Assembly: GCA_020161215.1 (NCBI GenBank)
Contig: JAIUOM010000001.1
Span: forward strand, 23,170-87,169
From: Pseudomonadota bacterium
GTDB lineage: Bacteria; Pseudomonadota; Gammaproteobacteria; Burkholderiales; Burkholderiaceae_C
Reading direction: 5' to 3'
DNA length: 64,000 bases
In this document: positions 20,751 to 60,488 of the stretch, one piece after another
How positions within the stretch are numbered: position 1 is the first letter of the stretch
Layout: each line of letters opens with the position of its first letter
The notes under the pieces: generated by a model
Databases searched by the model: none
The model's input: the letters and a program-made list of their open reading frames with translations, nothing else
What the model was told of the DNA's origin: nothing
Position numbers and translations under genes: made by a program

Positions 20751-20765
20751 GGCAAAGACAGCCAT

Positions 20766-24251: not shown

Positions 24252-24267
24252 CCCCTGAAAGAGCCCT

Positions 24268-26354: not shown

Positions 26355-26378
26355 AGCCCCGCAAGGGGCTTTTCTTTT
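26355..26378 (+). terminator. Hairpin-TTTCTTTT element
   Basis: agcccc-gcaa-ggggct followed by tttctttt. Confidence 0.45.
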
Positions 26379-26381
26379 GCC

Positions 26382-29041: not shown

Positions 29042-29153
29042 TCTGCCCAGGGAGCCGCTGAAGGCTCTCCCCCCCTCCTCACCTCACAGACCCCGCTTGC
29101 GCCCACCTAGGGCCGGCGGGGTTTTCCATTTCCGATCAACAAGGACCTCCTCA

Positions 29154-29432
29154 ATGACCAAGCGTATTCCTGCCAACGTGCAAATTCCACCGATGGTGTG
29201 GAAGGACCTGACGCCCCAAGGCAAAGCGCTCCTGAGCTACCTCAACACCACGGGAAGCATCACCCAGCGCGATGCCATCCTGGACCTGGGCGTGCAGTCC
29301 CTGACCAAACGAATCCACGAGTTGCGTGCCTTCTACGTCATCGTCAGCGACACGCGCCGGCACAAGACCACCGGCCAGCGCTACGTCCGCTACTTCTTGA
29401 AGTCCCTGCGCGACCAATACCGGGAGTTCTGA
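29154..29432 (+). CDS. Small winged-helix/HTH DNA-binding protein (92 aa)
   Basis: LLSYLNTTGSITQRDAILDLGVQSLTKRIHELR resembles an HTH. It ends 2 nt before the GNAT gene. Confidence 0.5.
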   Translation: MTKRIPANVQIPPMVWKDLTPQGKALLSYLNTTGSITQRDAILDLGVQSLTKRIHELRAFYVIVSDTRRHKTTGQRYVRYFLKSLRDQYREF

Positions 29433-33957: not shown

Positions 33958-34236
33958 ATGAACCACCTGTCCATCTTCATCGCCCTCGTTGTCGCCGCCG
34001 TCATCATCCTGACTGTTTGGGTGGCCGTCGTGGCCGTCAAGACATTCATCGCCCAACACCGCGCAGGCCAAGAGCCGACCGTCAAGGGTGCCTTCAAAAG
34101 CGCTCTGGCAGACGTGGCTTTCACCATCGCTACCCCGTTCCGCAAGCTGTGGGCCAAGGTACGTGCTGGGTGGGCCAGTGTCTCTGCCAAGGTCGCAGCC
34201 ATCATGCTCGCCCTGACGATTGCTATCCAAAAATAA
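33958..34236 (+). CDS. Small membrane protein (2 TM)
   Basis: IFIALVVAAVIILTVWVAVVAV and AAIMLALTIAI hydrophobic segments. Confidence 0.5.
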   Translation: MNHLSIFIALVVAAVIILTVWVAVVAVKTFIAQHRAGQEPTVKGAFKSALADVAFTIATPFRKLWAKVRAGWASVSAKVAAIMLALTIAIQK

Positions 34237-34261
34237 AAACGACCCTTATTGGACAACCCGG
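34232..34261 (+). promoter_or_regulatory. Phage RNAP promoter candidate, copy 3 (head of the structural module)
   Basis: Identical 30-mer. Confidence 0.6.
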
Positions 34262-37757: not shown

Positions 37758-37771
37758 TCTCGCAAACGAGA
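37758..37771. promoter_or_regulatory. Palindromic operator-type site TCTCG-CAAA-CGAGA in the capsid gene leader
   Basis: Perfect arms. Followed at 37775-37784 by tcccgatatc, the reverse complement of the GATATCGGGA core. Confidence 0.45.
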
Positions 37772-37802
37772 CATTCCCGATATCAATACAAGGAAATACA
37801 AC

Positions 37803-42270: not shown

Positions 42271-42769
42271 ACCGGCCCTTATTTCCGCCGGCCTGTCTAT
42301 CGCCGGGACAGCTCTAGGCGTGAACGCCCAGGCTCGTGCCGCATCGGCCCAGAACGAGGCCATCAACAAAGCCACCGTAGACAACTACTCGGCACTAAAC
42401 CGCCAAGGCGTGGAGGATCGTGAGAACGCCTCCGTCGAGCAAACCAAGATCAAGAACGACACCGAGTCCCGGACGGCATCGGCCCGAGCTGCTGCTGCCG
42501 GCGCCGAGGTAGGCGGTCTTAGCGTTGACGCCCTGCTGCTCGACTTGGCAGGCAAGGGTTTGGAGGCCGGCACCACGTCCGACATCAATTACACCCGCTC
42601 AGCGCAAGCCCGCGCCGACCAAGCAGAGGCGCTGCGCCGGGGCGCTGTGTCCCAGAAAGCCGCCATACGCGATGTAGGCGTGGCTGAATACCTGGGCGCC
42701 GGACTCCAGATAGCCAACACCGGCCTGAACTACGTGAATAAGCGCAAAGCGGCGCGGGGAGGTATCTGA
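42263..42769 (+). CDS. Internal virion protein (gp14 position)
   Basis: 168 aa, N-terminal hydrophobic segment; GGAGGA RBS before the ATG at 42263. Confidence 0.55.
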   Translation: MCEPALISAGLSIAGTALGVNAQARAASAQNEAINKATVDNYSALNRQGVEDRENASVEQTKIKNDTESRTASARAAAAGAEVGGLSVDALLLDLAGKGLEAGTTSDINYTRSAQARADQAEALRRGAVSQKAAIRDVGVAEYLGAGLQIANTGLNYVNKRKAARGGI

Positions 42770-45108
42770 TGCAGAACCGCGCCCCCACCGACAACCAGTT
42801 CGGGCAAGAGCGTTTGCGCACCCAGGCCCAGCCGGTGTTCACCACCGAGCAGCAGCCCGGCGCCCGCTACGAGGGGCTGGCAAAGGTCTTCGCCCAAGGG
42901 GAACTCCTGGCGCAACAGGCTCAGGCAACCAAGGACCACACCGACCGGGGCCGCGCCCAGCAATATGCCAACTCGATGACGGTGGCAGAGCTGGGCAAGA
43001 AGGTCCGTAACCAGGAGCTGATGGCCTCCGACTCCCCCGTGTTCGCCGCCACCCTCCAGAACATCTGGGGGGGTAACGCAGCCGCAGCCCTTGAGCGGGA
43101 CGTTCTATCCAAGATCGGCACAGGGGAGATGACCTTCAACAGCCCAGAGGAGATGGACAACTACCTCACCGAGCAGCGGAACACCACGCTGTCGGGACAA
43201 TCCCAGTACGCCGCTGCGGGGTTCGATAAGGGGCACGACCAGATGCGCCAGAAGTTCATGGCAGCAGCCTCCCAGGAGCGCGACAAGCGGCTGGTCACAC
43301 AGGCCACCAACGAGGTCACCGACAGTCTGGCGAACACCCTCATCACGGTGACGGGAAGCGACTTCAAGGGGAGCCAGCAGGACGCCGCCAAGACCATCCT
43401 GAGTCAGTACCAGAAGCTGCGCCAAGGCACCCACATGCCCGGCAGGGCCGCTGAAGGTGCCCTCAAGGAGGTCATCACCCGCGCAGCGCTAAGCGGTCAC
43501 ACGGAACTCGTTGAATCCCTGGTGGACTCCGAGCTGCCCGGCATCGGCACCATCCGCAACCTCCTGGGCGAGGCCCCCACGGCAACCCTGCTGGCTCAAG
43601 CAACGAACAAGAGGGACCAATCGCTGCGCCAAGATATCGACGTGCAGCTCCGGGACTTCTACCGTGACGCAGACGAGGGTCGCCTCAGCGTCGAGAAGCT
43701 GGACACCTTCGCCAACGTCAACGAGAAGTACCTGACCACACCGCAGTACATGAGTCTGTTGCACGCCAACCGAGCAGCCCAAGCCCGGCAGGAGGAGGTA
43801 CGGCAGAGGGTCACCAAGCAAGGCGCCATTGACGGGTCCGTCTGGGGTGCCGAGCAAGCCGTCCGGGCCGCTGTGTCGTCAGGCCAGTTGTGGACCCTCC
43901 GGGGCGCCGAACGGCCCCAGGTGCTGACCGCCACGGGTGGCCTGAAAGACTTCGACGTGGACCGCTTCGCTGCCCAGGAGGTGGCAAGCATGACCGCAGG
44001 GATGACCCCGGATAAAGCCTCGGCTGTGTGGGCTTCCAATGACCTGGAGAACCCCGACTGGAAGGCGCAGTTCTCGGCTGGCCTGATGAACTTCTCGTCC
44101 CTTGCTGGGGCCACCCCCGGCAAACCAGTGGGTGAGTTGAACAGCGCCGCGATGGACTCCATTAAGCTGTTCGAGCAGGTCAACCGGCAACAGCCCCGCT
44201 ACCTCAAGAACATGCTGGGCGAAAAGTCGTATGAGCAGTACGAGAACGTCAGCATCTTGATGTCTGGCGGGATGCCACCCAACACTGCCGCAGCTATGGC
44301 CGCGAACGTGGACCGAAACGACATCCTGAGCGACCACACGCGGGGCCTTGTCAAGCAAGTGCAGGCGGACACCGCCAAGATGCTGGCCGAGCCCTTCTAC
44401 AAGTGGGGCTGGGTGCAGAGAATGTTCGGGACCAACACCACCGGGAACTCCGTCCAAGTCGCCAGTCGGCTGGGCCGGATTACCGAGCTAATGGTCCGAT
44501 CCGGCATGTACCCGGACCTGGAGTCCGCCCGCAAGAGCGCTGGTGAGTACCTAGCGAGCCCGGCCGTGAGCGTCAAAGTCAACGGCTTTGTCTACATGCG
44601 GACGGAGCTGCCCAAGGCCCCACCGGGGGAGGCTCCCGAATACTGGTTCGAGAAGTTCATTGACGATGTGGTCAAGCCGGAAGCTCTCAAGCACCCCGGC
44701 ATCAAGGCCAGCGAAGTGAACCTCGTGTGGTCCCCTGCGGACAACGCTTACCGGGCTTTCGCGGCCGGTGTCCCGCTCACGGGAGATGGCTGGCACCAGC
44801 TCACTTACCGAGCCGCAGACATCGAGCGGCGCACTTTCACCGAGCGAGAGCAACGGATCAATTCCGCCGCTGTGGCTGGTGAGAAACGCCTGAGCGGTCA
44901 GGCCGAACAGGACTCCTACGGGGCCTGGAGAGCCGCGCGTGAACTGGAGATGGCCAAGAGTTACCAGCTTCGCTACGGCCAGCCGGGATTCCACAGCCGC
45001 ATCCTGTCCCTGGACGCCTATCGCCGCGCTGTGGCGGACGGCAACGAAGCCAAGAACCTGGACGAGTTGGAGCGGCTGTATCCGCCCCGCCGCCGCCCTA
45101 CCAAGTAA
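42769..45108 (+). CDS. Internal virion/core protein (gp15 position)
   Basis: 779 aa, position and size. Confidence 0.6.
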   Translation: MQNRAPTDNQFGQERLRTQAQPVFTTEQQPGARYEGLAKVFAQGELLAQQAQATKDHTDRGRAQQYANSMTVAELGKKVRNQELMASDSPVFAATLQNIWGGNAAAALERDVLSKIGTGEMTFNSPEEMDNYLTEQRNTTLSGQSQYAAAGFDKGHDQMRQKFMAAASQERDKRLVTQATNEVTDSLANTLITVTGSDFKGSQQDAAKTILSQYQKLRQGTHMPGRAAEGALKEVITRAALSGHTELVESLVDSELPGIGTIRNLLGEAPTATLLAQATNKRDQSLRQDIDVQLRDFYRDADEGRLSVEKLDTFANVNEKYLTTPQYMSLLHANRAAQARQEEVRQRVTKQGAIDGSVWGAEQAVRAAVSSGQLWTLRGAERPQVLTATGGLKDFDVDRFAAQEVASMTAGMTPDKASAVWASNDLENPDWKAQFSAGLMNFSSLAGATPGKPVGELNSAAMDSIKLFEQVNRQQPRYLKNMLGEKSYEQYENVSILMSGGMPPNTAAAMAANVDRNDILSDHTRGLVKQVQADTAKMLAEPFYKWGWVQRMFGTNTTGNSVQVASRLGRITELMVRSGMYPDLESARKSAGEYLASPAVSVKVNGFVYMRTELPKAPPGEAPEYWFEKFIDDVVKPEALKHPGIKASEVNLVWSPADNAYRAFAAGVPLTGDGWHQLTYRAADIERRTFTEREQRINSAAVAGEKRLSGQAEQDSYGAWRAARELEMAKSYQLRYGQPGFHSRILSLDAYRRAVADGNEAKNLDELERLYPPRRRPTK

Positions 45109-45207: not shown

Positions 45208-48200
45208 GTGTCGAATTACACGAGGGACCAAATCCGTCGAATCACTCTCGATTCAGAGAAAAAATACGGCCTGCCCAAGGACACCTTGTTCAAGATCGCA
45301 GGCATTGAGTCCAGCTACCGCCCCGGACAGCGGAGCCACACAGGTGCCCAAGGCTGGTTCCAATTTATGCCGGCAACGGCCAAACAGTACGGGCTGACCA
45401 ACCCTGACGACCTCACCCAATCCGCCGACGCTGCTGGCCGGTTCATGAAGGACCTGCTGGGACGCCACGACGGGAATATGGACGAGGCCCTGGCCTACTA
45501 CAACGGAGGCCACAAGGCTGTCGCGGCGCTACGTGGTGGCAAGCCGTGGGCGGAAACCTCGGACTACCTGTCCAAGTTCAACGGAGGTCGCGCAGGTGCC
45601 CCGGCAGCTCCCGCCGAAGTAGCCCCAAAGCCGGCTCTCGGGCGCCAGTTCACGGAGCTTGAAACCGTCCCCTCCACCCAAGGCCCCTCCAATACCCAGC
45701 TCGCCTTCCAACAACGCCAGCGCGAAGATGAGTTCGGTGGGGTCTCTGGCTTCGCTGGCAATGTGCTTGGCGCCGCTCGTCTGGGTTTCGAGACGCAGAA
45801 CACAGCTTGGAACTGGTTCAAAGACCGGGCCGTTGAAGATGTCGGGGAGCCCCTTGATTGGAACTCAGCGCTCGCCAAGGACACCCTGAATCAGTTCCCC
45901 GAGCGGCACTGGGGTTACCTCAGCGAAGCCGGCACGGTCAAGGGTCTGGAGATGCGCTCAGCACGGCTGGCCGAGACGATGGCCCAGGAGCAGAAGCTGG
46001 GTGAGATGGGCCTGCCCCTGGCGCTGACTGGCGGGATCGTGGGTGGCCTACCCGACATCCCGACTTTGATTGGCGCCTTGCCGGGTATGGGCGGTGCGGG
46101 CCTGCTCACCAAGACCAGCCGCCTCGCCAACCTCGTTCGTTCGGGAGCGTGGGGCGCAGCTACGAACGTTGCCATCGACGCCGTGGGCGATCAATACCGC
46201 CCCACAGCTACCCCAGACGACCTGTGGATGTCCGCCCTGTTCGGCGCTGCTGTGGGGGGCGTAGCAGGCTCGTTAGCCAAAGTGCGTGCCCCAGCGCTGG
46301 CGAAGGAACTCAGAGACCTGGACGGTCACCTAGGCAAACAGGCCAGGGACGCCATGGAGCGAGAGGCGATAGAAGGTGGCCTGGAGCCGGCCCCGCCTCG
46401 CATCACCCCTGAGAAGCCGCTGGAAAAGACCCCGGAACCCGTCCCTGAGCACGCCCCCGATGGGACACCCCAGCCGGGCTCCCTGAAGGGGCCTGAAGGG
46501 CTTGCGGGGGGTGACCCTCCCCAACCCCCACGGGTAGCCAAAGAAGCCCCCACCGGCCCAGATGCGGCGCCTGACAAGGCCCCTGATGCTGCCCCGAGGC
46601 AAGACCCTTGGGAGGCTGAGTGGGACACGCCGCGCTACACGGAGGCCACCGGCACGGGCAAGGTTTTGGAGTTGCCCGCCCTGGACGATCCGGGGGCCAT
46701 GGCGAAGTACGTCATCCGGTTCTCACAGAACGATGACCTCGTGCGGGTCCTGAAGAAGTCCCTGGAGGCTATCGACATGCGGCGCCTGAAGTTCTCCGTT
46801 CTCGACCCCAAGAGGGCGGGCAACCTACGGCCATCGTCCAACCCGAAGAACCGGCTGGCCCCCGATATGTCCACCAAACTGGGGGGCGCTCTGGGCTTGA
46901 TGCGGAGCACCTACACGGCGGACGGGGTTGACTTGCAGTTAGCCCTGCGTGGGCGCGGCTGGGGCTCAGCACACGGCCTGACCGAGGACATATTTATCCA
47001 CGAGATGGTTCACGGCGCCACGGTCCACCGCTTTGAGCGCACGATGAAGGGCTGGGGGACTTCCAGGATGTCGTCCGACACCAAGCAAGCCTACCGCGAG
47101 CTGAATGACCTGTACGGCTTCGTGAAGAAGCACTCCAGAACCCGGTCGGATATCCCGAAGAACGCGGGCAACTACCTCAGCAACGCCAAGGAGTTCATCT
47201 CCTACGGCCTTACCGACCGGCGCTTCCAGGACTGGCTACGAAGCGTCAAGGTGCCAGGGTCCAAGACGACGCTGTGGACTCGTTTCACGTCTGGTCTCTC
47301 CAAGCTACTGGGGATCGCCAAGAAGGACACCCATGCACTGGCCCGCCTGATCGACTTGACGGACGCAATGATGTCCAAGAAGGGATTCGACACCCGGAAG
47401 AACCCCCGGCCAACCCTTCAACCGGCGAACAAGTTCGTTTCCGACGAGGAGGCAACAGCGGCTGCGAATGCTGACCTATCCCCTGTGTTTGGCTGGGGGT
47501 TGGGCCTGGAGCACCGCCTGGGCTCCGAGAAGATTCCCCCGAAGATTCGCAACCTCGCTGGAAAGCTGTTTGGCACTACGGTTGGGTACAAGGATCACGC
47601 TGTAGTCAGGGCCAACGTCTGGGATGACAGCGTTGCCCGCAGCGGTGGCTGGCAGGCGGATATGCGCAAGGTCGGATACACCAAGTTCCACGAGTGGTTC
47701 AAGAGCCAGAAGGACTTCCCCTGGCATCAGAAAGGGGTGGCATTCGAGCACTTCGGTGAGCAGGTGAACAACTACATCCGAGGCATCCCAGGTCAGTACG
47801 GCCCCGAGGTGATTGCGGCCGGACGCCACGCCCAGGACATCCTGGAAACGGTGGTGGATGAAATCAACAACCCCGCGATGCGCCGTGGCGGGAGCAAGCG
47901 TGGCCTGACAACGCAGGAGGTGACCGACGACCTGGGCAACACGATGTGGGTTGGCGAGCTGCAAAAGAACCGTAACTACCTCCCCCGCAAACACGACATC
48001 ATGAAGTGGAACGCTGCCATCCAGAAGTGGGGGGTGAGTGCGGTAGAGGACTGGTGGACCAACGCCTTCGCAAAAACGCACGGCCACATGCAACCGGAGT
48101 TTCACCGCCGCTTCGCCAAGTGGTACATGGACGCGGTTCAGGATGCCCACCTAAACCGCACGGAGTCGCATCTGGAGGACATGATGACGGGTGCTGATGA

Positions 48201-51705: not shown

Positions 51706-51730
51706 AGCCCCTGCGGGGGCTTTTTCTTTT
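51706..51730 (+). terminator. Hairpin-TTTTTCTTTT element
   Basis: agcccc-tgcg-ggggct followed by ttttctttt. Confidence 0.45.
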
Positions 51731-51742
51731 CCCGAGGAGCCC

Positions 51743-53476
51743 ATGAAGTTAAAGCCTCCAGGGACGCTCCCACCCCTGAACCGTCTGGCTGACGCAATGC
51801 ACCCAGCACGGCAGGACTTCAGGAAATTCGTTTTCCTGCTGTGGAAGCACCTGAACCTACCCGCCCCCACTGATGTCCAGTACGACATCGCCCGTTACCT
51901 CCAGACCGGCCCGCGTCGGTGCGTTATCGAAGCCTTCCGTGGCGTCGGTAAGTCTTGGCTAACTGCTGGCTTTGTGGTCTGGCTGCTGTGGAACGACCCG
52001 CAGCAAAAAATCCTGGTGGTGTCCGCCTCGAAAGACCGGGCCGACCAATTCTCCAGCTTCGTCAAGCGGATCATCGCGGAGATGCCGCTGGTGCAACACC
52101 TGCAACCGAAACGCGGCCAGCGCGACTCCATGATCGCCTTTGACGTGGGGCCGTCCCGCGCAGACCACTCCCCCTCCGTCAAATCAGTCGGCGTGACCGG
52201 CCAACTAACCGGGTCCCGTGCCGACGTAATCATCCCCGATGACGTGGAGGTCCCCAACAACTCCATGACGCAGACCCAGCGGGACCAGCTCGCTGAGCGT
52301 GTGAAGGAATTCGACGCCATCCTGAAGCCGGGTGGCCGGGTCATCTATCTGGGAACCCCCCAGTGCGAGGCCAGCCTCTACATCGAGTTGCCCGAACGCG
52401 GCTACCAAGTCCGTGTGTGGCCCGCGCTGTACCCCACGCTGAAGCAGATCGACGGCTACAAGGGCACCCTGGCCCCGTTCATCACTCGGCGATTGGAGAA
52501 AGACCTATCGCTCCAAGGCACGACGACTGACCCCAAGCGGTTCTCCGACGATGACCTCATGGAACGCCGGGTGTCCTACGGCAAAGCCGGCTTCGCGCTC
52601 CAGTTCATGCTGGACACCACGCTGGCCGACCTGGACAAGCACCCGTTGAAACTCGCCGACCTCATCACGATGAGCCTGCCACCGACGATGGCGCCAATCA
52701 AGATCGCCTGGGCGGGTGCCTCCGAACAGGCCCTGGCCGAGCTGCCTGCTGTCGGCCTCACAGGGGACAGGTACAACCGCCCCATGTGGTACGCCCCTGA
52801 GCTGACTGAGTACGCCGGGGCTGTCATGACCATCGACAACGCAGATGGCACCCACGATGAGACCGCCTTTGTCGTGGTCAAGCAGCTCCACGGGAACTTG
52901 TTCCTGACCCTCTCCGACTCCGTGATGGGACCGAGTGATGCCAGCATGGGCAAGATCGCCCAGGCCGCTAAGAGCCAAGGTGTCAATCTGATCCGGGTGG
53001 AATCCAATGCGCAGGGGAACACCTTTGCCGAGCTGTTGCGCAAAGCGCTCAAGGCCGCTGGCTATCCGTGCACCGTGGAAACCAAGCGCTCCCACGGCCA
53101 GAAAGAGCTGCGGATCATCAGCACACTTGAGCCGGTACTCGGGGGCCACCGTCTAGTGGTGGACGCAAGGGTCATTGAGCAGGACTATGCCTGCACCCGC
53201 GACGAGCCGCGCAAGAGCCTGTTCTACCAACTGACCCGGATCACACGGGACCGTGGCTCGCTGGGCTTTGACGACCGCATAGACGCCCTGGCCCAAGCTG
53301 TGAGCTACTGGTCTGAGGCACTGAGCCGTGACCAAGAGAAAGCCGCTGAGGCCCACAAGGACCGGGCCATCCACGAGACCTTGAAGGACTTCATTCGGAA
53401 CGCCCTGGGCAAAGGCAAGCGACGTGGCCGCGCAGCATCCGCTTTCAGCACGAACAGGGGGCTCTCAGGCCGTTAA
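51743..53476 (+). CDS. Terminase large subunit (gp19-like)
   Basis: 577 aa; CVIEAFRGVGKSW Walker A-like, VIIPDDVE Walker B-like; T7 gp19 size and position. Confidence 0.85.
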   Translation: MKLKPPGTLPPLNRLADAMHPARQDFRKFVFLLWKHLNLPAPTDVQYDIARYLQTGPRRCVIEAFRGVGKSWLTAGFVVWLLWNDPQQKILVVSASKDRADQFSSFVKRIIAEMPLVQHLQPKRGQRDSMIAFDVGPSRADHSPSVKSVGVTGQLTGSRADVIIPDDVEVPNNSMTQTQRDQLAERVKEFDAILKPGGRVIYLGTPQCEASLYIELPERGYQVRVWPALYPTLKQIDGYKGTLAPFITRRLEKDLSLQGTTTDPKRFSDDDLMERRVSYGKAGFALQFMLDTTLADLDKHPLKLADLITMSLPPTMAPIKIAWAGASEQALAELPAVGLTGDRYNRPMWYAPELTEYAGAVMTIDNADGTHDETAFVVVKQLHGNLFLTLSDSVMGPSDASMGKIAQAAKSQGVNLIRVESNAQGNTFAELLRKALKAAGYPCTVETKRSHGQKELRIISTLEPVLGGHRLVVDARVIEQDYACTRDEPRKSLFYQLTRITRDRGSLGFDDRIDALAQAVSYWSEALSRDQEKAAEAHKDRAIHETLKDFIRNALGKGKRRGRAASAFSTNRGLSGR

Positions 53477-53604
53477 AAGGGCTCAGGGGTTACTACCCCC
53501 CACCCAACGGCCGGAAGCCGCTAGAGGCCCTAAAACACCCCCGAGGAACCCCGTTCCCACCACCCCCTACGCCAGCGTACACAGTGGAGACAGTCTCCTC
53601 CCCC

Positions 53605-53655
53605 AGGCCACCTCAGGACCACCCTTCCAGGGCTCCGCAGGTGGCCTATTTTTTC
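53605..53655 (+). terminator. Long hairpin plus T-run after the terminase gene
   Basis: 9-bp stem aggccacct/aggtggcct with a 25-nt loop, then attttttc. Confidence 0.45.
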
Positions 53656-53687
53656 ATAGCAAGGAACCCGCATGAAACCTCACGATT

Positions 53688-53717
53688 AATAAAAACGACC
53701 CTTATTGGACAACCCGG
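53688..53717 (+). promoter_or_regulatory. Phage RNAP promoter candidate, copy 4 (phiOR-like position, facing the non-coding terminus region)
   Basis: Identical 30-mer. Confidence 0.6.
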
Positions 53718-53973
53718 TGTGAATCGGCCTTGTCTGGGGAGCGTCCCTACTCATGGGTAGGACGGCGGCCTTTGGCAACTTTGCCGCTTGGGGACTAGTG
53801 AAGCCAACCAGGAGTCCAGATGGACTCTGTGGAATGTGGGTTTATGTTCTCTCTGCTCCTACCTCTTGTCTATCTCTGGGACCCCGTAAAGGCCCTCTAG
53901 AGGTTCAATCTACGGGGGGTAGGGGGGGAGTTGAAAACAGCTCGCTCCCAGAGAGTCCTACCTCAACTACCTC

Positions 53974-53997
53974 CCTATTGATTACCTAAAGGGAACC
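53974..53997 (+). repeat. CCTATTGATT-ACCTAAAGGG element (copy 1 of a pair exactly 300 bp apart) with tandem CCTAAAGG
   Basis: cctattgattacctaaagggaacctaaagg; partner cctattgattcttaagggga at 54274. Confidence 0.5.
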
Positions 53998-54239
53998 TAA
54001 AGGCGAACCCAGCGGGGACCTGGCGGGATGCCTCCAGGGACCAATAGAGTGCTTAGCGGGGTACAGCCATCATGGTCTACCCAAGAGCGAAGCGACTGAG
54101 GGGAGCCCCCAAATAATTAGCCGCAAAAGTCCGAGGACACCCTCGATACAGGGGCGGCGCGAATTTCCCCCCATGGCCCCCTCGAAGCCCCCCCCCTACC
54201 TCCCCGGTGGAGAACCTCCATGCACCCCCTCCGGGCGCC

Positions 54240-54263
54240 TGTGACACCGTGACACCTGCCACA
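54240..54263. promoter_or_regulatory. TGTGACAC...CTGCCACA motif (copy B)
   Basis: tgtgacaccgtgacacctgccaca. Confidence 0.35.
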
Positions 54264-54273
54264 AGCGAGCTAA

Positions 54274-54295
54274 CCTATTGATTCTTAAGGGGACC
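54274..54295 (+). repeat. CCTATTGATT-CTTAAGGGGA element (copy 2)
   Basis: Shares CCTATTGATT and a CT(A/T)AAGGG-like tail with the element at 53974. Confidence 0.5.
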
Positions 54296-54449
54296 GCAGC
54301 GGATGGGGCATCCACAGGGGGGCGGATTCGGGGCCTTGAGAGTCACTGGGTGTGGTTCTTTATAGCTATTTGATATGATGAACCAGTTGTTAATAGCCAA
54401 TAGCTATATCACTGCATCTTTGGCTATCTGTAGTTGTTATTCCTTTTAG

Positions 54450-54473
54450 TTATAAAGACAGAATTCTTTATAA
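54450..54473. repeat. Palindrome TTATAAAG-N8-CTTTATAA in an AT-rich block
   Basis: Read directly. Confidence 0.5.
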
Positions 54474-54480
54474 CCCCATG

Positions 54481-54648
54481 CCACCTCTAGGCCACCTCCA
54501 GGCACTGCACCGAGCCACCCCAGGCACTGCACCGAGCCACCTCCAGGCCACCTCCAGGCCACCTCCAGGCACCCCCAGGCCACCTCCAGGCCACCTCCAG
54601 GCACTGCACCTCTAGGCCACCTCCAGGCACTACACCGGGCCACCCAAG
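54481..54648 (+). repeat. Degenerate tandem array: ~11 copies of the 11-bp unit GCCACCTCCAG interspersed with 4 copies of GCACTGCACCGA-like units
   Basis: Read directly. Flanked by AT-rich DNA at 54355-54476 and 54652-54745. Confidence 0.8.
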
Positions 54649-54669
54649 AGGTTTAGCTTGAAACTATCG

Positions 54670-54685
54670 AATTGAAAATTCAATT
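54670..54685. repeat. Palindrome AATTGAA-AA-TTCAATT
   Basis: Read directly; upstream of the early promoter. Confidence 0.5.
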
Positions 54686-54697
54686 AGTTAATTCCGA

Positions 54698-54727
54698 TTG
54701 ACTTAATACTCTCGATATCGGGATACT
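54698..54727 (+). promoter_or_regulatory. Sigma70-type early promoter TTGACT-N18-GATACT
   Basis: The hexamers equal those I recall for T7 A1 (TTGACT/GATACT). The spacer holds operator TCTCGATATCGGGA. 47 nt upstream of the first early ORF. Confidence 0.55.
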
Positions 54728-54740
54728 CTCGACATCGGTT
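54710..54740. promoter_or_regulatory. Operator pair O1: TCTCGATATCGGGA + TCTCGACATCGGTT (17-bp register)
   Basis: The first 14-mer is identical at 55336 and 59218; near-palindrome of TCTCGATATCGAGA. Confidence 0.5.
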
Positions 54741-54774
54741 TGATTCACAGACCGTAACCACCCAGGAGAAAACC

Positions 54775-55332
54775 TTGATTAAGACCCCCGTCAACGAATA
54801 CACGATGAACAAAGCAGGCGCCGAGCTGGGCCGCTGGATGATCCAGAGAGCTGCCCGTTTGGCCCGTGATGTTGGATTCAGCTACGAGCCGGCTGGTGAT
54901 GCCCCGGAGACCTACGAAGCTGTCCTGGCTGCTGTACGCCGTTCGCAGTGTGAGCGGGTTCCCTTCCCGGTTTGGGCAGGCGGATCGGACGCCACCATCT
55001 ATGGCAGTGCGGAGGCCAATTACGCTTTCCGCTACTGGCATGACATGGCCCATATCGCCTCTACGGGTGACTTCACAGTCGCCGGGGAACTGGCTGCTGT
55101 CCGTATGCAGCTCACCGAACTTGCTCGCACTTTCGGTACAGACTCAATCGAATACGCCCTGTTCGTTGCTGACACTCTCGGGCAGGTTTGGTTCCACGAG
55201 CGCACCGAGGGCGGATTCGTCCAGGATCAAAAAAGCTGGGTGTTTGCTGTCGTCCAGGCTCACGCGGACACCCACCGAGGAGACCTCCAGGGACTTGAGG
55301 CTCATTTCCTAGAGGGCCTTCGTTCGTCCTAA
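54775..55332 (+). CDS. Hypothetical early protein (185 aa)
   Basis: TTG start 7 nt after AGGAG; first ORF downstream of the early promoter. Confidence 0.5.
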   Translation: MIKTPVNEYTMNKAGAELGRWMIQRAARLARDVGFSYEPAGDAPETYEAVLAAVRRSQCERVPFPVWAGGSDATIYGSAEANYAFRYWHDMAHIASTGDFTVAGELAAVRMQLTELARTFGTDSIEYALFVADTLGQVWFHERTEGGFVQDQKSWVFAVVQAHADTHRGDLQGLEAHFLEGLRSS

Positions 55333-55335
55333 CCC

Positions 55336-55369
55336 TCTCGATATCGGGACTATCTCGGGTTTGCCGAGA
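55336..55369. promoter_or_regulatory. Operator pair O2: TCTCGATATCGGGA + TCTCGG-GTTTG-CCGAGA
   Basis: Same 17-bp register as O1. Confidence 0.5.
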
Positions 55370-55446
55370 GGTCCCCCCAGAGGGTCCGAGCCGGGTTCTC
55401 TGGGGGGATTCGCCCCTACCGATCAAGCACCAACGGAGATTTGAAG

Positions 55447-55539
55447 ATGAGTGACCTCTACGACCTCTTTCACGACTGCCCCGAGCTGGCAGAGGCTGTG
55501 AACGAAGCCCAGCACGCCGATGGCGATACAGGGGAGTGA
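55447..55539 (+). CDS. Possible 30-aa acidic peptide
   Basis: MSDLYDLFHDCPELAEAVNEAQHADGDTGE; GGAG RBS; below the ORF-track threshold. Confidence 0.25.
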   Translation: MSDLYDLFHDCPELAEAVNEAQHADGDTGE

Positions 55540-55541
55540 CC

Positions 55542-55967
55542 ATGGCGGAACTAGTCACCTTTGACCCCACGAGCCTAGGCTCTCATCGCGCCCGGAACAT
55601 GAGCCCCGAAAAAGAGCTGCTGCACGCCTATTCGGCTGTCGTGGTCGATGCTGAAGGAGGCTTGTCTAACCCCGTTACCGCCCGCGTTTACGGATCGCGG
55701 CATGGCGATGGCGCCGGGCGCCTGTGGGCATCCGTGTGGACGGCCCCGGAAAGCCTTAAGGGGGGCGGCGCCAGCGGCTGGGGGTACGTCACCGGCTGCG
55801 GATACCACAAGCCCAGCGCGGCGATTGCTGTGGCGCTGCGTGCGGCTGGCTGGCTGTTGCCTTTCGAGGTGTCGGGCTGCGGCCATGGAACCACCATCCG
55901 CGCCCTTGAGGCTGTCGCTATGGCATGCGTCCCAGGCGCCGCACGGGGACAGGTCATCACGCACTGA
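55542..55967 (+). CDS. Hypothetical early protein (141 aa)
   Basis: ATG at 55542 (the ORF track uses the GTG at 55536). Two GCG(Y/H) motifs. Confidence 0.5.
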   Translation: MAELVTFDPTSLGSHRARNMSPEKELLHAYSAVVVDAEGGLSNPVTARVYGSRHGDGAGRLWASVWTAPESLKGGGASGWGYVTGCGYHKPSAAIAVALRAAGWLLPFEVSGCGHGTTIRALEAVAMACVPGAARGQVITH

Positions 55968-56069
55968 GCGCCAGAACTGCGCCTGAAGGGCACCCGGAGG
56001 GGCCGCTTAGAGTGGCCGTGGGGGGTGCCCTTTGGGGGCCGCTTTGGCCCGTACAAAGGAGAAAAATCC

Positions 56070-56681
56070 ATGCCTAGCATCGACGTGCCCGCAGCACATT
56101 TAAAAGCCTTGGCGCGGTTCACCGTCCCCAAGGACATCCGCAGCTCTTATCGGGGGGTATGGGTGGAGCGCTCGCGGGTCTACCGTAGCGGGTTCACCCT
56201 GGCCGCATCCAACGGGTTCGCCCTGGCCGTCCTGCACTACGCGGAGGGCGGGCGCGAGCTGGGGCCAACACCCTACATGATCGACCCAAAACCGCCGAAG
56301 CCGGCGCGGCGAGAGGTTCAGCCAAGGTTCACCCAAAAGCTGGTCCGGGTGCGTTGGTCCGAGCCGGCCAATGCCCAAGGCGGCTTACCTTGGCGGGATG
56401 TCTTTCCGGCACAGATCACCGGGGAGCCGGCGCAATACGCGCCCCACAGCTTGAACTTGTTCGGCCGGTTGGCTGCTGCGGTTGCAAATCAGCGGCTGGG
56501 CAACCCGGCTATTCCGTGCATCCACTACAACGGCCCCAATCACCCCGGAATCGTCACTTTCCCGGCGCTGGACAGCGATGAAGCCGCCCCCGAGTTCGTC
56601 GGTGTTATCTCCCCGGTCCATAGCTGGCCCGCAGAGGGGACCCATGCAGGCCCGTACATGCCTGCCGTTTGGGCCGCTTGA
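56070..56681 (+). CDS. Hypothetical early protein (203 aa)
   Basis: AAGGAG RBS before the ATG at 56070. The N-terminal LKALARFTVPKD...GFTLAASNGFALAV faintly recalls a beta-clamp domain; unverified. Confidence 0.5.
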   Translation: MPSIDVPAAHLKALARFTVPKDIRSSYRGVWVERSRVYRSGFTLAASNGFALAVLHYAEGGRELGPTPYMIDPKPPKPARREVQPRFTQKLVRVRWSEPANAQGGLPWRDVFPAQITGEPAQYAPHSLNLFGRLAAAVANQRLGNPAIPCIHYNGPNHPGIVTFPALDSDEAAPEFVGVISPVHSWPAEGTHAGPYMPAVWAA

Positions 56682-56715
56682 CGTGGCCGCAGAAAACTCC
56701 TTTCAGAGAATCAAT

Positions 56716-56940
56716 ATGACAAACGAAATCCGCCCGATCTTGAACATCACCCGCCGCGCTTGTCCCGCCCAGAAGTTCGCCAAATACGCCCGCGTGGTGT
56801 TCCCCGAGGGGGTCACCCGCAGCGCTGTCGAGGCCACCATTGGGCGCTTCCCGGCGTCCGAGGGGTTCCGCGTGAGCCTGCGCCGCTCTGGCCCCGTGGG
56901 CTTTTCGCTCCCCCTTGAGCTGGCCGAGCTGGGGGCATGA
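56716..56940 (+). CDS. Hypothetical protein (74 aa)
   Basis: Internal ATG of ORF 56482-56940; abuts the next ORF (ATGA overlap). Confidence 0.4.
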   Translation: MTNEIRPILNITRRACPAQKFAKYARVVFPEGVTRSAVEATIGRFPASEGFRVSLRRSGPVGFSLPLELAELGA

Positions 56941-57245
56941 CCATGGCACGCATCGACATAAACCACATCCTGCTCTTGCGCCCGGTCGGTAGTCGGTACG
57001 GGGCACCGCTGGGCCGTAGGAACGTCCTGGGCGAGCCGTCCCCGCTGTATCTCCAGCGTGTCCGGTTTGTGGATGGCGACTACGCCCCCGATGGGACCTA
57101 CTGGGGCGGTGGAGGTGCCCCCCTGTGGTGCGCGTTCACGCCGGACCTATCCACTGAGGTCTATGTGCGAGCGCGGAGCCGCGCGGAGGCGTTTGAGGCC
57201 GTCAAGGCTGAGTGCCCCGAAGCCACTCTTTTCCGTGCGCCCTAA
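56937..57245 (+). CDS. Hypothetical protein (102 aa)
   Basis: ORF track; translationally coupled to the previous ORF. Confidence 0.45.
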   Translation: MTMARIDINHILLLRPVGSRYGAPLGRRNVLGEPSPLYLQRVRFVDGDYAPDGTYWGGGGAPLWCAFTPDLSTEVYVRARSRAEAFEAVKAECPEATLFRAP

Positions 57246-57282
57246 CACTTCCGACATCAATTCTTTCCCGATACAGAAACGC

Positions 57283-57310
57283 TCTCGATATGTCACACCT
57301 TCTCGATGCC
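57283..57310. promoter_or_regulatory. Two TCTCGAT half-sites (O3)
   Basis: tctcgatatgtcacaccttctcgatgcc. Confidence 0.3.
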
Positions 57311-57377
57311 GTTGCTTACTCTGGTGGCCGATTCTGCTGGGCTTTCCCCGGCATAAAAGTAACCAAAAAACACTCAA

Positions 57378-57390
57378 ATTACCGGGTAAT
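57378..57390. promoter_or_regulatory. Palindrome ATTACC-G-GGTAAT
   Basis: In the 450-bp lower-GC non-coding region upstream of the MarR-like gene. Confidence 0.4.
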
Positions 57391-57488
57391 TCCCGTTGTT
57401 TTAACGCGACTTAACCATGGAAACAGGGGCTTGCGCAACAGGTCCGGTGTAACATCCTCTCCCGCTGCCGGGACAATCATTGAATCGA

Positions 57489-57532
57489 GTTACTGCCGGT
57501 AACGGTAGTTATGATCCTTCTTTATCCATAAC
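57489..57532. promoter_or_regulatory. Palindromes GTTAC-TGCCG-GTAAC and GTTATG-N13-CATAAC
   Basis: Read directly; share the TTAC..GTAA theme with 57378. Confidence 0.4.
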
Positions 57533-57697
57533 ATAGGATCGTCGTTTTGATGCACGTCAAAGTAGCTGGGCACGAAGTAATTCTCACGACCGCCCCCTTA
57601 GCGCCGCCGTATGCAGCGTTCGACCGAACGTACTGCGGTGGATTTGAGGTCTTCTTAGGGCCTCTCCATCTAATCTACAGCCGACCAAGGAAACGCT

Positions 57698-58084
57698 GTG
57701 AACGAAAAACTAACAATCGAGGAGCGTATTGCAACGAACCGCCTGTATGCGGTGTTGGAGGAACTGGGGGGCGTACATCCGAATATGACGGTAGCGCAGC
57801 TCAAGACTCTCGTTGCAGCAGCGTTGAATCCAGGCAGCACCGTGACCGAGCTTGGAAAGCTGACTGGAACCACCCTCTCGTCCGCTTCGCGGCACGTCGA
57901 TGCACTTGGCCCGCTCCAGGCGACCCGCAAGATCGGTATGGATTTGGTGACATCTGACTATGACGCCCTAAACAGGCGCCGGAAAGTGGTCCAGCTCACC
58001 GCAGACGGCTACCGCCTCCTACGCGCGGTGCTGATGCGGATGGCCGGTCCTGCTGGGATCACTGTGACACGTCCTAAGGAGTAA
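57698..58084 (+). CDS. MarR-like winged-helix transcriptional regulator
   Basis: MTVAQLKTLVAAALNPGSTVTELGKLTGTTLSSASRHVDAL...RRKVVQLTADGYRLL. GTG start after AAGGAAA; 4 nt upstream of the integrase gene. Confidence 0.6.
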   Translation: MNEKLTIEERIATNRLYAVLEELGGVHPNMTVAQLKTLVAAALNPGSTVTELGKLTGTTLSSASRHVDALGPLQATRKIGMDLVTSDYDALNRRRKVVQLTADGYRLLRAVLMRMAGPAGITVTRPKE

Positions 58085-58088
58085 TTGA

Positions 58089-59312
58089 ATGCCTATCTAT
58101 GAACGAGGAGGCGCCTTTCAGGTGTCCGTGGGGTCAGGGGCTGCGCGAAAGCGCGAGACGACCTCCACCAGAGCGGAAGCCGAGGCCCTTGAACTGGCCC
58201 TGCTGGCCGAGTTGCGCGATGAAAAGCTGCGACGTGTAGCGGCCCGCGCCCAGGGTGACCCAGCAAAGACTGTGGGGCACGCTGTCGAGGCCGCTATTCG
58301 GGACCACTGGCTGGACACCAAGAGCCGACGCACTACGGAGCTGAATGTGCGCGACATCGCCGCCATCCTCGGATGGGACCGCCCGCTGGTGAGCCTCATG
58401 ACGAGTGACGTGGACGACGCCGTTGCGGAGCTGATTGAGCGCGGAATCACCGGGTCCACGATCAACCGCAAGCTGTCCGCCCTGAGCGTGTCCCTGCGCA
58501 ACGCCCGCCGCAAAGGGTGGGTGAAGGACCTACCGGACATCCTCAGGAGGAAAGAATCGGAATGTCGCATCGGCTGGTACACGGAGGAGACCGAGAAGCT
58601 GATGCTGGACACATGCGAGCGGCTGGGTCTGAATGCCCTGGCGAACTTCATCACGGTTGGCATCGACACTGGGTTCCGCCGCACGGAGATGCTGCGGCTG
58701 GTCCCTGCCGACTTAGCTGGCGGTCTGGTCATCCTGCATGCTGGGGAAACCAAGAGCGGTAAGGCCCGCGCTGTGCCCGCTACGGAGTCCGTGGTTGCCG
58801 TCTTTGAAGCTGCCAAGGGGGTCGGTAGCCCCCGCGTGTTTCAGAGCCTCACAGACTCAATCCTGAGGTCGCAATGGTCCCAGCTCCGGGAGGCCCTACA
58901 TCGAGAGCAAGACCCGTTCTTCATCGTGCACACCCTGCGTCATACCACAGCCACCCGGCTGGCCTTCGCTGGGGCCACCGCACCGCAGATCATGGCGTTC
59001 ATGGGGCACTCAAGCCTTCAGGTCTCGCAGAAGTACATCCACCTTGCTGCGGAACACGTCAAAGGGATTGAAGTGCTGTTGACCAGGAAGGCCCCAAGGG
59101 TGGTTTCAGCCCCCCTGCCGACACCTCTGCCGGTTCCCGCTCAACCCGCTGCTGGGGACCCTACTGAGGCACCTTGTGACACCAAACCTGCCACAAACCC
59201 CCTTTTTCGCCAATCATTCTCGATATCGGGACCATCTCAATATCGAGTTACAAATCAACAGTTTAGTGGGTTTTCACTGGGCAACTTAGGAGGGCCGTGG
59301 CAGAAAACATAA
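58089..59312 (+). CDS. Tyrosine recombinase/integrase
   Basis: RRTEMLRL (Arg I), HTLRHTTATRL (HxxR), MGHSSLQVSQKYIH (His...Tyr). About 85 non-conserved-looking C-terminal residues overlap regulatory motifs. Confidence 0.85.
   Translation: MPIYERGGAFQVSVGSGAARKRETTSTRAEAEALELALLAELRDEKLRRVAARAQGDPAKTVGHAVEAAIRDHWLDTKSRRTTELNVRDIAAILGWDRPLVSLMTSDVDDAVAELIERGITGSTINRKLSALSVSLRNARRKGWVKDLPDILRRKESECRIGWYTEETEKLMLDTCERLGLNALANFITVGIDTGFRRTEMLRLVPADLAGGLVILHAGETKSGKARAVPATESVVAVFEAAKGVGSPRVFQSLTDSILRSQWSQLREALHREQDPFFIVHTLRHTTATRLAFAGATAPQIMAFMGHSSLQVSQKYIHLAAEHVKGIEVLLTRKAPRVVSAPLPTPLPVPAQPAAGDPTEAPCDTKPATNPLFRQSFSISGPSQYRVTNQQFSGFSLGNLGGPWQKT
59175..59195. promoter_or_regulatory. TGTGACAC-N5-CTGCCACA motif (copy C)
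   Basis: tgtgacaccaaacctgccaca, 164 bp from the attR core. Confidence 0.4.
59218..59248. promoter_or_regulatory. Operator pair O4: TCTCGATATCGGGA + TCTCAATATCGAGT
   Basis: Same 14-mer and 17-bp register as O1/O2; inside the integrase 3' end. Confidence 0.5.
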
Positions 59313-59358
59313 TCGGATTCGAGAGCTTCGCGTCAACGGCAGGGACTTTAGCAGTGTC

Positions 59359-59369
59359 TTTTAAGTCCG
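59359..59369. repeat. attR core, 11-bp direct repeat TTTTAAGTCCG
   Basis: Identical to 20634-20644. Confidence 0.8.
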
Positions 59370-59397
59370 CTGTGTCTACCTGTTTCACCACCGGGGC
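59359..59397 (-). pseudogene. 5' part of the split host tRNA-Leu(UAA) gene (acceptor strand, D arm, anticodon stem 5' strand and loop)
   Basis: The reverse complement is GCCCCGG-TG-GTGAAACAGGTAGACAC-A-GCGGA-CTTAAAA. The sequence then continues into non-tRNA phage DNA. Confidence 0.8.
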
Positions 59398-59493
59398 GAT
59401 TGTCCGGTCCCGATCATCCACGGCGGGCACGCTGGCCGAAACACTATACCCCCGCAGCCCCGTCGGCGCGAGTCGAACCCGCGGGTACCCATC

Positions 59494-59532
59494 GATAAAA
59501 GAAAAAACCACCCGTGCTTGTGGCACGCGTGG
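59494..59532 (-). terminator. Rho-independent terminator downstream of tRNA-Lys
   Basis: 10-bp stem (one mismatch) ccacgcgtgc/gcacgggtgg followed by TTTTTTCTTTT on the minus strand. Confidence 0.6.
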
Positions 59533-59544
59533 CTTTCGTATTTT

Positions 59545-59620
59545 TGGTGGGTCGTGCGTGACTCGAACACGCGACCAACGGATTAAAAGTCCGCTGCTCT
59601 ACCAACTGAGCTAACGACCC
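59545..59620 (-). tRNA. tRNA-Lys (anticodon UUU)
   Basis: The reverse complement GGGTCGTTAGCTCAGTTGGTAGAGCAGCGGACTTTTAATCCGTTGGTCGCGTGTTCGAGTCACGCACGACCCACCA folds as a canonical 76-nt cloverleaf. Confidence 0.9.
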
Positions 59621-59657
59621 CCACACACCATTCGCTATGAGCCTCTTGTGAAGCGCC

Positions 59658-60488
59658 TTAGCGATCTGGCAAGCCTTGCATTATAGCGTGTTTTTTTGCG
59701 TGTCCTGAAGCGATCTGATTCAGCACCCACCCCGCCGCGCAAAAACCAAAACTGGCGGTCACGGCCACGCTCGATCCGTAGCCGTGACAGTTGAGTGTAC
59801 CGTCCCTCTCGGCCGGACTCTCGCAGGCCTCCGGCATGGCCACCGCCTCGCGGCTGAACACGACGGGCACACCGATGCGCTTGCCCTGTGTCGGCGCGCC
59901 ATGCTGGCGCCGCAGACGGTAGCGCAACTGGGCCATCAGCGGGTCGTGCGTCACCTCGGCCAAATCGGCGATCTCCACGCGCTCGGGGTGGCGCTTGCCA
60001 CCGGCCGCCCCCACCGCCATGAAGCACGCGCCGCTGTGCAACGCCCAGGCCGCCATGGCGACCTTGGCGGCCATCTGGTCACAGGCGTCGATCACGGCAT
60101 GCACCGGCGCCGGCAGCAGCGCCGGCCAGTTGCCGGGCTCGACGAATTCCTCGACCTCATGCACCTGGCAACCCGGGTGGATCTGCAAGATGCGCTCGCG
60201 CATCGCCGTCACCTTGGCCTGCCCCAGGGTGCCGCTCAGGGCGTGCACCTGACGGTTGACGTTCGATTCAGCCACCTGGTCCAGGTCGATCAGGGTGAGG
60301 GCCGCCACGCCGCTGCGCGCCAAGGCCTCGGCCACCCAGGAGCCCACGCCGCCGATGCCGACCACGGCCACGTGGGCGCCCCGGATGCGCCGCGCGCCCT
60401 CCGCGCCGTACAGGCGCGCCAGGCCGCCAAAACGGCGCTCCAGATCGGCGGCGTCGCCCTCCACGACCGAAGACCAGGGCGCGCTCAC
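59658..60488 (-). CDS. tcdA: tRNA threonylcarbamoyladenosine dehydratase (ThiF/MoeB-type)
   Basis: RFGGLARLYGAEGARRIRGAHVAVVGIGGVGSWVAEALARSGVAALTLIDLDQVAESNVNRQVHAL parallels E. coli TcdA. The GTG at 60488 overlaps the upstream stop (GTGA); the ORF-track extension to 60815 is rejected. Confidence 0.8.
   Translation of the reverse strand: MSAPWSSVVEGDAADLERRFGGLARLYGAEGARRIRGAHVAVVGIGGVGSWVAEALARSGVAALTLIDLDQVAESNVNRQVHALSGTLGQAKVTAMRERILQIHPGCQVHEVEEFVEPGNWPALLPAPVHAVIDACDQMAAKVAMAAWALHSGACFMAVGAAGGKRHPERVEIADLAEVTHDPLMAQLRYRLRRQHGAPTQGKRIGVPVVFSREAVAMPEACESPAERDGTLNCHGYGSSVAVTASFGFCAAGWVLNQIASGHAKKHAIMQGLPDR

Follow-up and report, generated by a model that had tools for sequence, protein, structure and literature searches.

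TCTCG palindromes of an integrated T7-like prophage as candidate operators of a MarR-fold repressor

The window analyzed here comprises 64,000 nucleotides (nt) of contig JAIUOM010000001.1 (GCA_020161215.1; positions 23,170-87,169, forward strand) and contains a T7-like prophage in which a palindromic motif, TCTCG-N4-CGAGA, recurs at the early promoter, around the gene of the T7-type single-subunit RNA polymerase (RNAP), upstream of the gene of a MarR-like protein (marR), and at two late genes. We propose that these sites are operators of a phage-encoded dimeric repressor, most probably the MarR-fold protein encoded at 57698-58084, a reading to which we give a probability of roughly 0.6. An operator set of a dimeric repressor in a temperate T7-like phage had been suggested in an earlier note on this DNA, and the suggestion is now supported by orthologous sites in related phages, by covariation of the palindrome arms, and by the predicted fold of the candidate binder.

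We found 11 sites with one arm mismatch or fewer in the window, compared to 2.15 expected and a maximum of 6 in simulated sequences. Nine of these lie in the 38.7-kb prophage and two in the 25.3 kb of host DNA, the latter being the chance level, so that motif density inside and outside the prophage is not equal. A Markov simulation of the prophage gave expectations of 1.48 such sites and of 0.057 perfect ones, close to the ∼0.04 previously estimated, and not a single simulation yielded at least two perfect-arm sites. The exact 14-mer TCTCGATATCGGGA, which the earlier note had placed at 54710, 55336, and 59218, is indeed present at these three positions, with 0 copies in 100 shuffles. Also as described there, each copy is followed by a second, related site in a 17-bp register, and Tandem Repeats Finder independently calls a period of 17 at 54706-54738. 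A full module approaches a 31-bp palindrome with four alternating half-sites, that is, a 14-bp palindrome, 3 bp, and a weaker 14-bp palindrome, a layout that suggests two dimers binding side by side. The half-site pattern TCTCG-N12/13-TCTC[GA], searched on both strands of the window, occurs five times, always on the + strand of the prophage (21061, 54710, 55336, 57283, and 59218). When positions 3 and 12 are allowed to vary (TC[TC]CG-N4-CG[AG]GA), seven perfect sites are obtained, all of them in the prophage and among them the tandem site at 57460-57490. A further perfect match to this relaxed pattern (44771-44784), inside the gene at 42769-45108, has no comparative support and may have arisen by chance; one-mismatch matches at 45780 and 46800 likewise have no comparative support.

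We refer to the individual sites as O1 to O8. At the left end of the phage map, a consensus scan predicts a sigma-70-like early promoter, TTGACT-N18-GATACT (54698-54727, + strand), which is the only + strand match of this type in 53400-59700. The scan bears out the claim that the first pair of sites sits in its spacer: O1 (TCTCGATATCGGGA-tac-TCTCGACATCGGTT, 54710-54740) lies in the spacer and covers the first 2 nt of the −10 element. O2 (TCTCGATATCGGGA-cta-TCTCGGGTTTGCCGAGA, 55336-55369) begins 4 nt past the stop codon with which the first early gene ends, and the open reading frame (ORF) that comes next is 112 nt away. Half-sites had been reported at 57283 and 57301, and two TCTCGAT copies are found there (57283-57307), but they are spaced by 18 rather than 17 bp and have no right arms, and we list them as tentative. 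O3 (TCCCGCTGCCGGGA-caa-TCATTGAATCGAGT, 57460-57490), absent from the earlier note, lies 238 nt upstream of marR and is a candidate autoregulatory operator for this gene. O4 (TCTCGATATCGGGA-cca-TCTCAATATCGAGT, 59218-59248) had been described as lying beside the right attachment site (attR), which holds in that the site is near attR, the precise position being ∼140 bp left of the attachment (att) core at 59359-59368. In the excised phage, O4 is located upstream of attP, the promoter-like element phi1, and the RNAP gene.

The RNAP gene itself (21008-23584, + strand) is bracketed by O5 and O6, which are 2528 bp apart. O5 (TCTCGATCCCGAGA-tgg-TCTCG, 21061-21082) is found at +53 inside the gene, with its palindrome (21061-21074) over codons 18 to 23, and O6 (TCTCGCAATCGTGA-cca-TCCCTACTCCGGGA, 23589-23619) starts 5 nt past the RNAP stop codon, ending 6 nt before the promoter-like 30-mer phi2. 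Further downstream, O7 (TCTCGCAAACGAGA-cat-TCCCGATATCAATA, 37758-37788) is part of the capsid leader, 32 nt upstream of the capsid ATG (37803), while O8 (TCTCGATTCAGAGA, 45246-45259), with one mismatch, lies at +38 in a gp16-like gene encoding an SLT domain. The perfect arms at 21061-21074 and 37758-37771 and the single mismatches at 23589 and 45246 agree with the previous description.

The same palindrome is present in three independent relatives whose MarR-like proteins are 45 to 49% identical to that of the window, namely, Limnohabitans phage YIMV22061 and the metagenomic loci L098 and L097. When each genome was scanned without bias for all perfect palindromes with 5-nt arms and a spacer of 0 to 8 nt, TCTCG-N4-CGAGA ranked first among the palindrome families in both YIMV22061 and L098. 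YIMV22061 (MarR 46% identical) has five perfect sites and more at one mismatch. In the 12 kb of L098 (45%), there are 5 perfect sites and 7 with one mismatch, including two just upstream of marR, two between the integrase gene (int) and the RNAP gene, one at RNAP +50, and one 5 nt past the RNAP stop; L097 (49%) has sites 5 nt past the RNAP stop and in the int-RNAP spacer.

The relatives also place their sites as the window does. Upstream of the early genes, YIMV22061 carries three modules, the counterparts of O1 and O2, and its int-RNAP spacer holds one site, corresponding to O4. The perfect sites inside the RNAP gene at +50 in YIMV22061 (30321) and L098 (7624) match O5 at +53, and the 5-nt distance from the RNAP stop to O6 is found again in YIMV22061 (32849), L098 (10155), and L097 (14489). 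O7 has an ortholog with similar flanks in the capsid leader of YIMV22061, whose gp16-like gene contains a perfect site at +41, compared to +38 for O8. At approximately RNAP +50, the arms of the site are identical in three phages over varying encoded residues (SLDPEM, ALDDEM, and VLASEM). To encode these arms, leucine has to be specified by CTC and a rare codon ending in T has to be used, with odds of ∼1% per phage for the given protein sequence according to codon usage. Fixed arms over varying residues, combined with rare codons, therefore argue for selection on the DNA itself. In addition, sites are seen 51 to 108 nt upstream of marR in L098 and L101, and in YIMV22061 and L097 the second half of the post-RNAP site overlaps the upstream edge of a phi2-type promoter.

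The relatives came from a full HMMER scan, L097 and L098 being retrieved via their MarR proteins in an exact-protein look-up. A word-based search for close MarR homologs returned only the protein itself, and searches for related loci with MarR alignments found one viral locus and, with a different alignment, none in genome contigs. Scanning IMG/VR for TCTCG in the context of an RNAP stop gave six matches, all of them unrelated chance occurrences, and the TCTCG clade seems to be absent from this collection.

Other clades of T7-like phages were accessible through RNAP-anchored loci from IMG/VR; in ∼28 of these, int and the RNAP gene are preceded by a gene for a MarR homolog. MarR-encoding loci carry a 14-bp dyad 3 to 6 nt after the RNAP stop, and its arms vary by clade: TTACC..GGCAA, TTCCA..TGGAA, ATCCA..G.CAT, and, in the clade of the window, TCTCG..CGAGA. 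These dyad clades correspond to types of MarR recognition helix (SRY-ALGK, SRY-F-KP, SRN, and SRH-ALGP). The post-RNAP dyad has at least four of five complementary arm positions in 20 of 31 loci, compared to a null rate of 16%, and since the 31 loci are related, the nominal P value exaggerates the strength of this enrichment. The element of a given locus recurs upstream of its marR gene or between marR and RNAP +150 in 23 of 30 loci, amounting to 46 sites versus 3.5 with permuted-arm controls in the same 30 loci. A test of MarR presence or absence against that of the dyad is weak, as many "MarR-minus" loci merely have no upstream sequence.

Pseudomonas phage LUZ100 (L013) offers a comparison with mapped transcripts. 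Its element ATCCACYAGCGCATARGWTGCGC, which contains the perfect palindrome GCGCA-N5-TGCGC, occurs at 378-400, 579-601, and 6691-6713, that is, in the spacer and −10 of P1 and P2 and again 13 nt after the RNAP stop. P1 and P2 are host promoters whose transcription starts have been mapped experimentally (PMC10134795), and the predicted geometry of the element is that of O1 and O6. The LUZ100 paper makes no mention of operators or palindromes (PMC10134795). As a separate observation, several T7-like contigs without a detectable MarR or integrase (L055, L057, L062, L063, L069, L074, L077, and L094, from IMG sample 3300045988 and others) contain GCTAG-N4-CTAGC palindromes, some in 18-bp tandem arrays, which are found over the RNAP stop codon as well as in the early region; a Pfam scan of L074 found no regulator.

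The proposed repressor (57698-58084, + strand) is a protein of 128 amino acids encoded directly upstream of the tyrosine integrase. It matches PHROG 9665, "transcriptional regulator," with an E value of 4.7e-16, and a profile of its homologs searched against the PDB retrieves almost exclusively MarR-family regulators (best E value, 1.6e-9). Its AlphaFold2 model, with a predicted local distance difference test score (pLDDT) of 92.8, comprises helices at residues 7-26, 32-43, 49-56, 60-70, and 102-116 and a beta wing at 84-100, consistent with a winged helix-turn-helix with flanking helices. Essentially all of the 50 matches listed by Foldseek against the PDB are MarR-family regulators. We are therefore confident that the modeled protein has a MarR fold. 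Its genomic setting is that of the LUZ100-like lysogeny module of temperate Autographiviridae: marR directly precedes the tyrosine integrase gene, the att site associated with tRNA-Leu separates int from the RNAP gene, and the latter has a phage promoter upstream.

A separate motif is very likely to represent the promoters of the phage RNAP. The 30-mer AATAAAAACGACCCTTATTGGACAACCCGG has four + strand copies, at 20819-20848 (phi1, upstream of the RNAP gene), 23625-23654 (phi2, after it), 34232-34261 (before the portal gene), and 53688-53717 (after the terminase gene), positions that correspond to phi1, phi2, phi6, and phi8 of LUZ100. By eye, it has an ACGAC core in common with the T7 promoter. 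No copy is located directly before the capsid gene. The TCTCG motif is unlike such a promoter in being palindromic and in occurring in the early region and inside genes; a role for it as phage RNAP promoter was ruled out, AATAAAAACGACCCTTATTGGACAACCCGG filling that role and the TCTCG motif bearing no resemblance to it. The phi1 copy upstream of the RNAP gene would give positive feedback.

On the reading that we favor, the repressor bound to O1, over spacer and −10, would block the host RNA polymerase at the main early promoter. The O2 module follows the first early gene, and O3, upstream of marR-int, would provide autoregulation. O4 lies on one side and O5 on the other of a segment with attP, phi1, and the RNAP gene start; transcription entering this gene would be stopped at O5. 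O6 would occlude the phi2-driven middle genes. The case for late-gene control comes from two sites only, O7 in the capsid leader and O8 at the 5′ end of the gp16-like gene. Integration at attP also separates the early and marR-int units from the RNAP gene. Tight multisite control of the RNAP gene would make sense because phi1 renders RNAP expression self-amplifying, as has been noted for LUZ100 with its phi1-type promoter (PMC10134795). Of this scheme, the motif with its statistics and positions, the conservation and covariation across phages, and the MarR fold are shown; that a protein binds, which protein this is, that binding is cooperative, that it acts as a roadblock, and how induction proceeds are inferred.

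More tentatively, and with doubts prevailing over confidence, one may picture a clade of temperate Autographiviridae in which lysogeny is maintained not from a single switch region but by a network of operators that are dispersed along the genome and conserved in position. Early promoters would be silenced by tandem MarR operators, others would bracket the self-amplifying RNAP gene, and further sites would mark the genes of the capsid and an internal virion protein; the post-RNAP operator would be family-wide in MarR-encoding T7-like phages, including LUZ100. In such a network, a site in the attP arm, the +50 site, and the site at stop +5, abutting phi2, would bracket the RNAP gene, acting as roadblocks or as anchors of a ∼2.5-kb loop.

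Several points weigh against operators bound by the MarR-like protein. Long-range roadblocking of a T7-type polymerase is inefficient. O6 and O7 do not overlap phage-promoter cores in the window, and O8, which overlaps a conserved protein motif, is a weaker site. No clear site is seen upstream of marR in YIMV22061, L097, and L102. The protein scores 21.1 bits with Pfam MarR_2, under the gathering cutoff of 27 bits, and it has neither a cysteine nor a cleavage domain that would explain an induction signal. The link between recognition helix and half-site is imperfect, with L032 and L037 combining an SRH helix with TTACC arms and L018 and L021 having odd sites; besides, the covariation of arms and MarR is confounded by shared phylogeny, as all phage proteins codiverge. 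Finally, MarR and a second candidate binder, an HTH_39 winged-helix protein (29097-29432, + strand, identified by Pfam), co-occur in most loci, and so co-occurrence alone cannot pick the binder.

It is conceivable, if unlikely, that the sites are true operators of this HTH_39 protein, the product of a middle gene, or of a host factor, serving, for example, an early-to-middle shutoff of promoters used by the host polymerase instead of lysogenic repression. Most of the same phages encode an HTH_39 homolog, identity being 67% between the homologs of the window and YIMV22061, which have the same arms, and the LUZ100 homolog is annotated as a putative DNA-binding protein. The sole clean MarR-less case, L030/L031, without an integrase, also keeps HTH_39 together with a post-RNAP dyad. 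However, this is essentially the only copy there, apart from one more one-mismatch match in L031, so that HTH_39 is not accompanied by the extra copies. MarR is further favored because four MarR-encoding loci (L014, L084, L085, and L096) keep multicopy site families even though HTH_39 is undetected within 6 to 10 kb downstream, and because sites are concentrated just ahead of marR, as is usual for autoregulated MarR genes. A host factor is an unlikely binder since the arms change between phage clades and the host flanks contain the motif at chance density.

We consider it more improbable still that the modules are cassettes at transcription-unit boundaries, composed of terminator hairpin, weak host promoter, and leader, and kept as promoter cores or as RNA stem-loops such as processing sites, with a dyad symmetry that serves no repressor. 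All modules are oriented with transcription, most are preceded at 6 nt by TCGYCY or TTGACT, which resemble a −35 element, and have a −10-like hexamer (GAnnnT) over the right arm, and the early modules lie 65 to 130 nt upstream of ORFs, after GC hairpins. Yet a promoter would gain nothing from dyad symmetry that is preserved as the arms change from clade to clade, sites also occur inside coding regions at conserved codons, and in LUZ100 the mapped host transcription starts do not include one at the post-RNAP copy (PMC10134795). With regard to RNA structure, tandem sites fold as hairpins with z scores of −2.1 to −3.9, better than shuffles at O1, O2, and O4, and in RNA, the 14-mer with its A-to-G change would form a G-U pair. 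In contrast, most imperfect sites break the pairing without any wobble pairs, the RNA fold of O5 is no better than shuffles (z score, +0.27), and O1a, being upstream of the predicted transcription start, would not be transcribed if the promoter call at 54698 is right. Promoter and operator roles are not mutually exclusive. As for a chance cluster or a recently duplicated repeat without function, its probability is negligible. In principle, a single segment could have given rise to the three exact 14-mers, the flanks of this repeat family being 62 to 76% identical, but the flanks have diverged around an exact core, and phages with no more than 40 to 50% protein identity have this palindrome at matching positions. 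A chance origin is effectively refuted by the shuffles and simulations given above, along with the orthologous sites in YIMV22061, L098, and L097.

A MarR-based switch for temperate T7-like phages has already been proposed, with MarR sites flanking the promoter upstream of RNAP (Boeckman 2022, Virology 568:86, as cited in PMC10134795 and PMC11321410); to this, the window adds a site-by-site map. LUZ100 (gp10/gp11) has the same order as the window (early region, marR, int, tRNA-Leu/attP, phage promoter, and RNAP), a MarR homolog 43% identical to the window protein, and a repeated element at P1, P2, and after RNAP, placed like O1 and O6. It differs in its half-site, which is of the ATCCA/GCGCAT type as opposed to TCTCG, and the window copy, unlike LUZ100 in this comparison, is a real integrated prophage with att sites. 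The clade of the window goes beyond LUZ100 in having conserved sites at RNAP +50, in the capsid leader, and at gp16 +40. In the literature on temperate T7-like phages, compared here apart from Boeckman 2022, operators, palindromes, and sites at RNAP +50 or stop +5 are undescribed, and the detailed site map and its family-wide conservation may be new.

With the E. coli MarR/marO family, the window protein has the winged-helix fold in common, as indicated by the PDB profile and Foldseek. MarR-family repressors bind short pseudo-palindromic operators over −35 and −10 elements, often as two adjacent sites, and regulate their own genes. The TTGCC/TTACC...GGCAA arms of sister clades presumably resemble marO half-sites. 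E. coli MarR and its kin are chromosomal, respond to ligands or oxidation, and control one locus, whereas the window protein is shorter (128 amino acids), without cysteine, and would have ∼8 dispersed phage sites. The logic is reminiscent of lambda CI at OR/OL, where several tandem operators likewise cover the early promoters, the repressor controls its own gene, cooperativity (probable in the window) plays a part, and operators are ∼2.5 kb apart. CI, however, belongs to an unrelated protein family, the window protein has no S24 self-cleavage domain, and its targets would include the phage RNA polymerase gene and intragenic sites. In pET-type vectors, a lac operator is placed on T7 promoters, and a repressor beside the promoter limits the single-subunit polymerase. 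That control is synthetic, with the operator just downstream of the start site, whereas the natural sites in the window are upstream of phi2 or >200 nt downstream of phi1.

A strictly lytic lifestyle is widely attributed to T7-like phages, and they are favored for phage therapy and as a source of orthogonal polymerase-promoter pairs. An operator map of an integrated T7-like prophage makes the proposed MarR switch directly testable, with defined DNA probes and a defined protein, and yields clear predictions for O1, O5, and O6. In addition, marR-int combined with clade-specific dyads after the RNAP stop is a signature that could flag temperate Autographiviridae in genomes, and the clade-specific repressor-operator pairs could serve as orthogonal control parts for T7-type expression systems.

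Regarding the wider setting, the prophage has a GC content of ∼61%, compared to ∼66 to 70% for the surrounding host DNA, and its genes are on the + strand throughout. They follow the order attL (the left attachment site), promoter-like 30-mer, T7-type RNAP, DNA metabolism, structural genes, and terminase (51743-53476), and then a repeat-rich noncoding stretch, the early genes (54775-57245), the MarR-like gene, the integrase, and attR. This is the layout of LUZ100 and YIMV22061, circularly permuted because integration occurs between int and the RNAP gene. Copies of the prophage that are ∼100% identical, with the same host junction, are present in several wastewater metagenomes; at this identity, the near-identical copies L002-L011 are uninformative about site conservation. 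Two metagenome copies carry an indel at 56966-57022 relative to the window (loci noted: L003, L005, L006, L007, and L010). Three metagenome contigs end at 59378-59388, just beyond the att core, as would be expected if assembly broke off where integrated forms diverge from free or empty ones.

The only stretch common to both prophage borders is TTTTAAGTCC, located in the anticodon loop and taken here as the att core. The attL copy (20712-20721) lies inside tRNA-Leu(UAA) (20662-20750, − strand), the attR copy (59359-59368) in the anticodon loop portion of the host tRNA-Leu 5′ half (59359-59400), which has been displaced. Integration splits the tRNA at its anticodon loop, with the intact tRNA at attL having a phage-derived 5′ half and, within 59313-59400, the host 5′ half at attR adjoining a degenerate phage 3′ half. 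A further tRNA-like remnant with the same core word is seen at 20600-20660; an Rfam scan of the window detected two tRNAs only. The nonconserved 3′ tail of the tyrosine integrase gene (58089-59312, + strand) overlaps O4 and the attP arm. Clusters of (T)GTGACAC ... CTGCCACA(A/G) occur at 20765-20798, 59174-59196, and 54239-54264. The two that flank the att core look like arm-type sites of the integrase, and similar words flank tRNA-Leu in L012, L097, and L098; the third is near the presumed virion end.

Some noncoding features deserve mention. The 450 bp upstream of marR (57246-57697) are without a called gene, a Pfam-supported ORF, or an Rfam match; they hold the TCTCGAT half-sites, the tandem site at 57460, and, by eye, an inverted repeat at ∼57510-57545. 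A hairpin with a perfect 17-bp stem and no U-tract (55372-55408, + strand) directly follows O2. An 81-nt segment containing both the O2 stem-loop and this hairpin folds at −46 kcal/mol (z score, −4.0), and the hairpin is possibly a terminator or is processed by an RNase III-type enzyme. A tandem array with an 11-bp unit, CCAGGCCACCT × 13.5, spans 54476-54628 (and 53597-53623), beside a stretch (54360-54480) that by eye looks AT-rich and has many short inverted repeats; located between the terminase gene and the early promoter, they probably form the virion-end or concatemer-junction region. Finally, one repeat family with three copies (24228-24254, 26355-26381, and 51707-51733) consists of GC hairpins followed by TTTTCTTTT(C/G)CC, which are likely intrinsic or phage-polymerase terminators at module boundaries.

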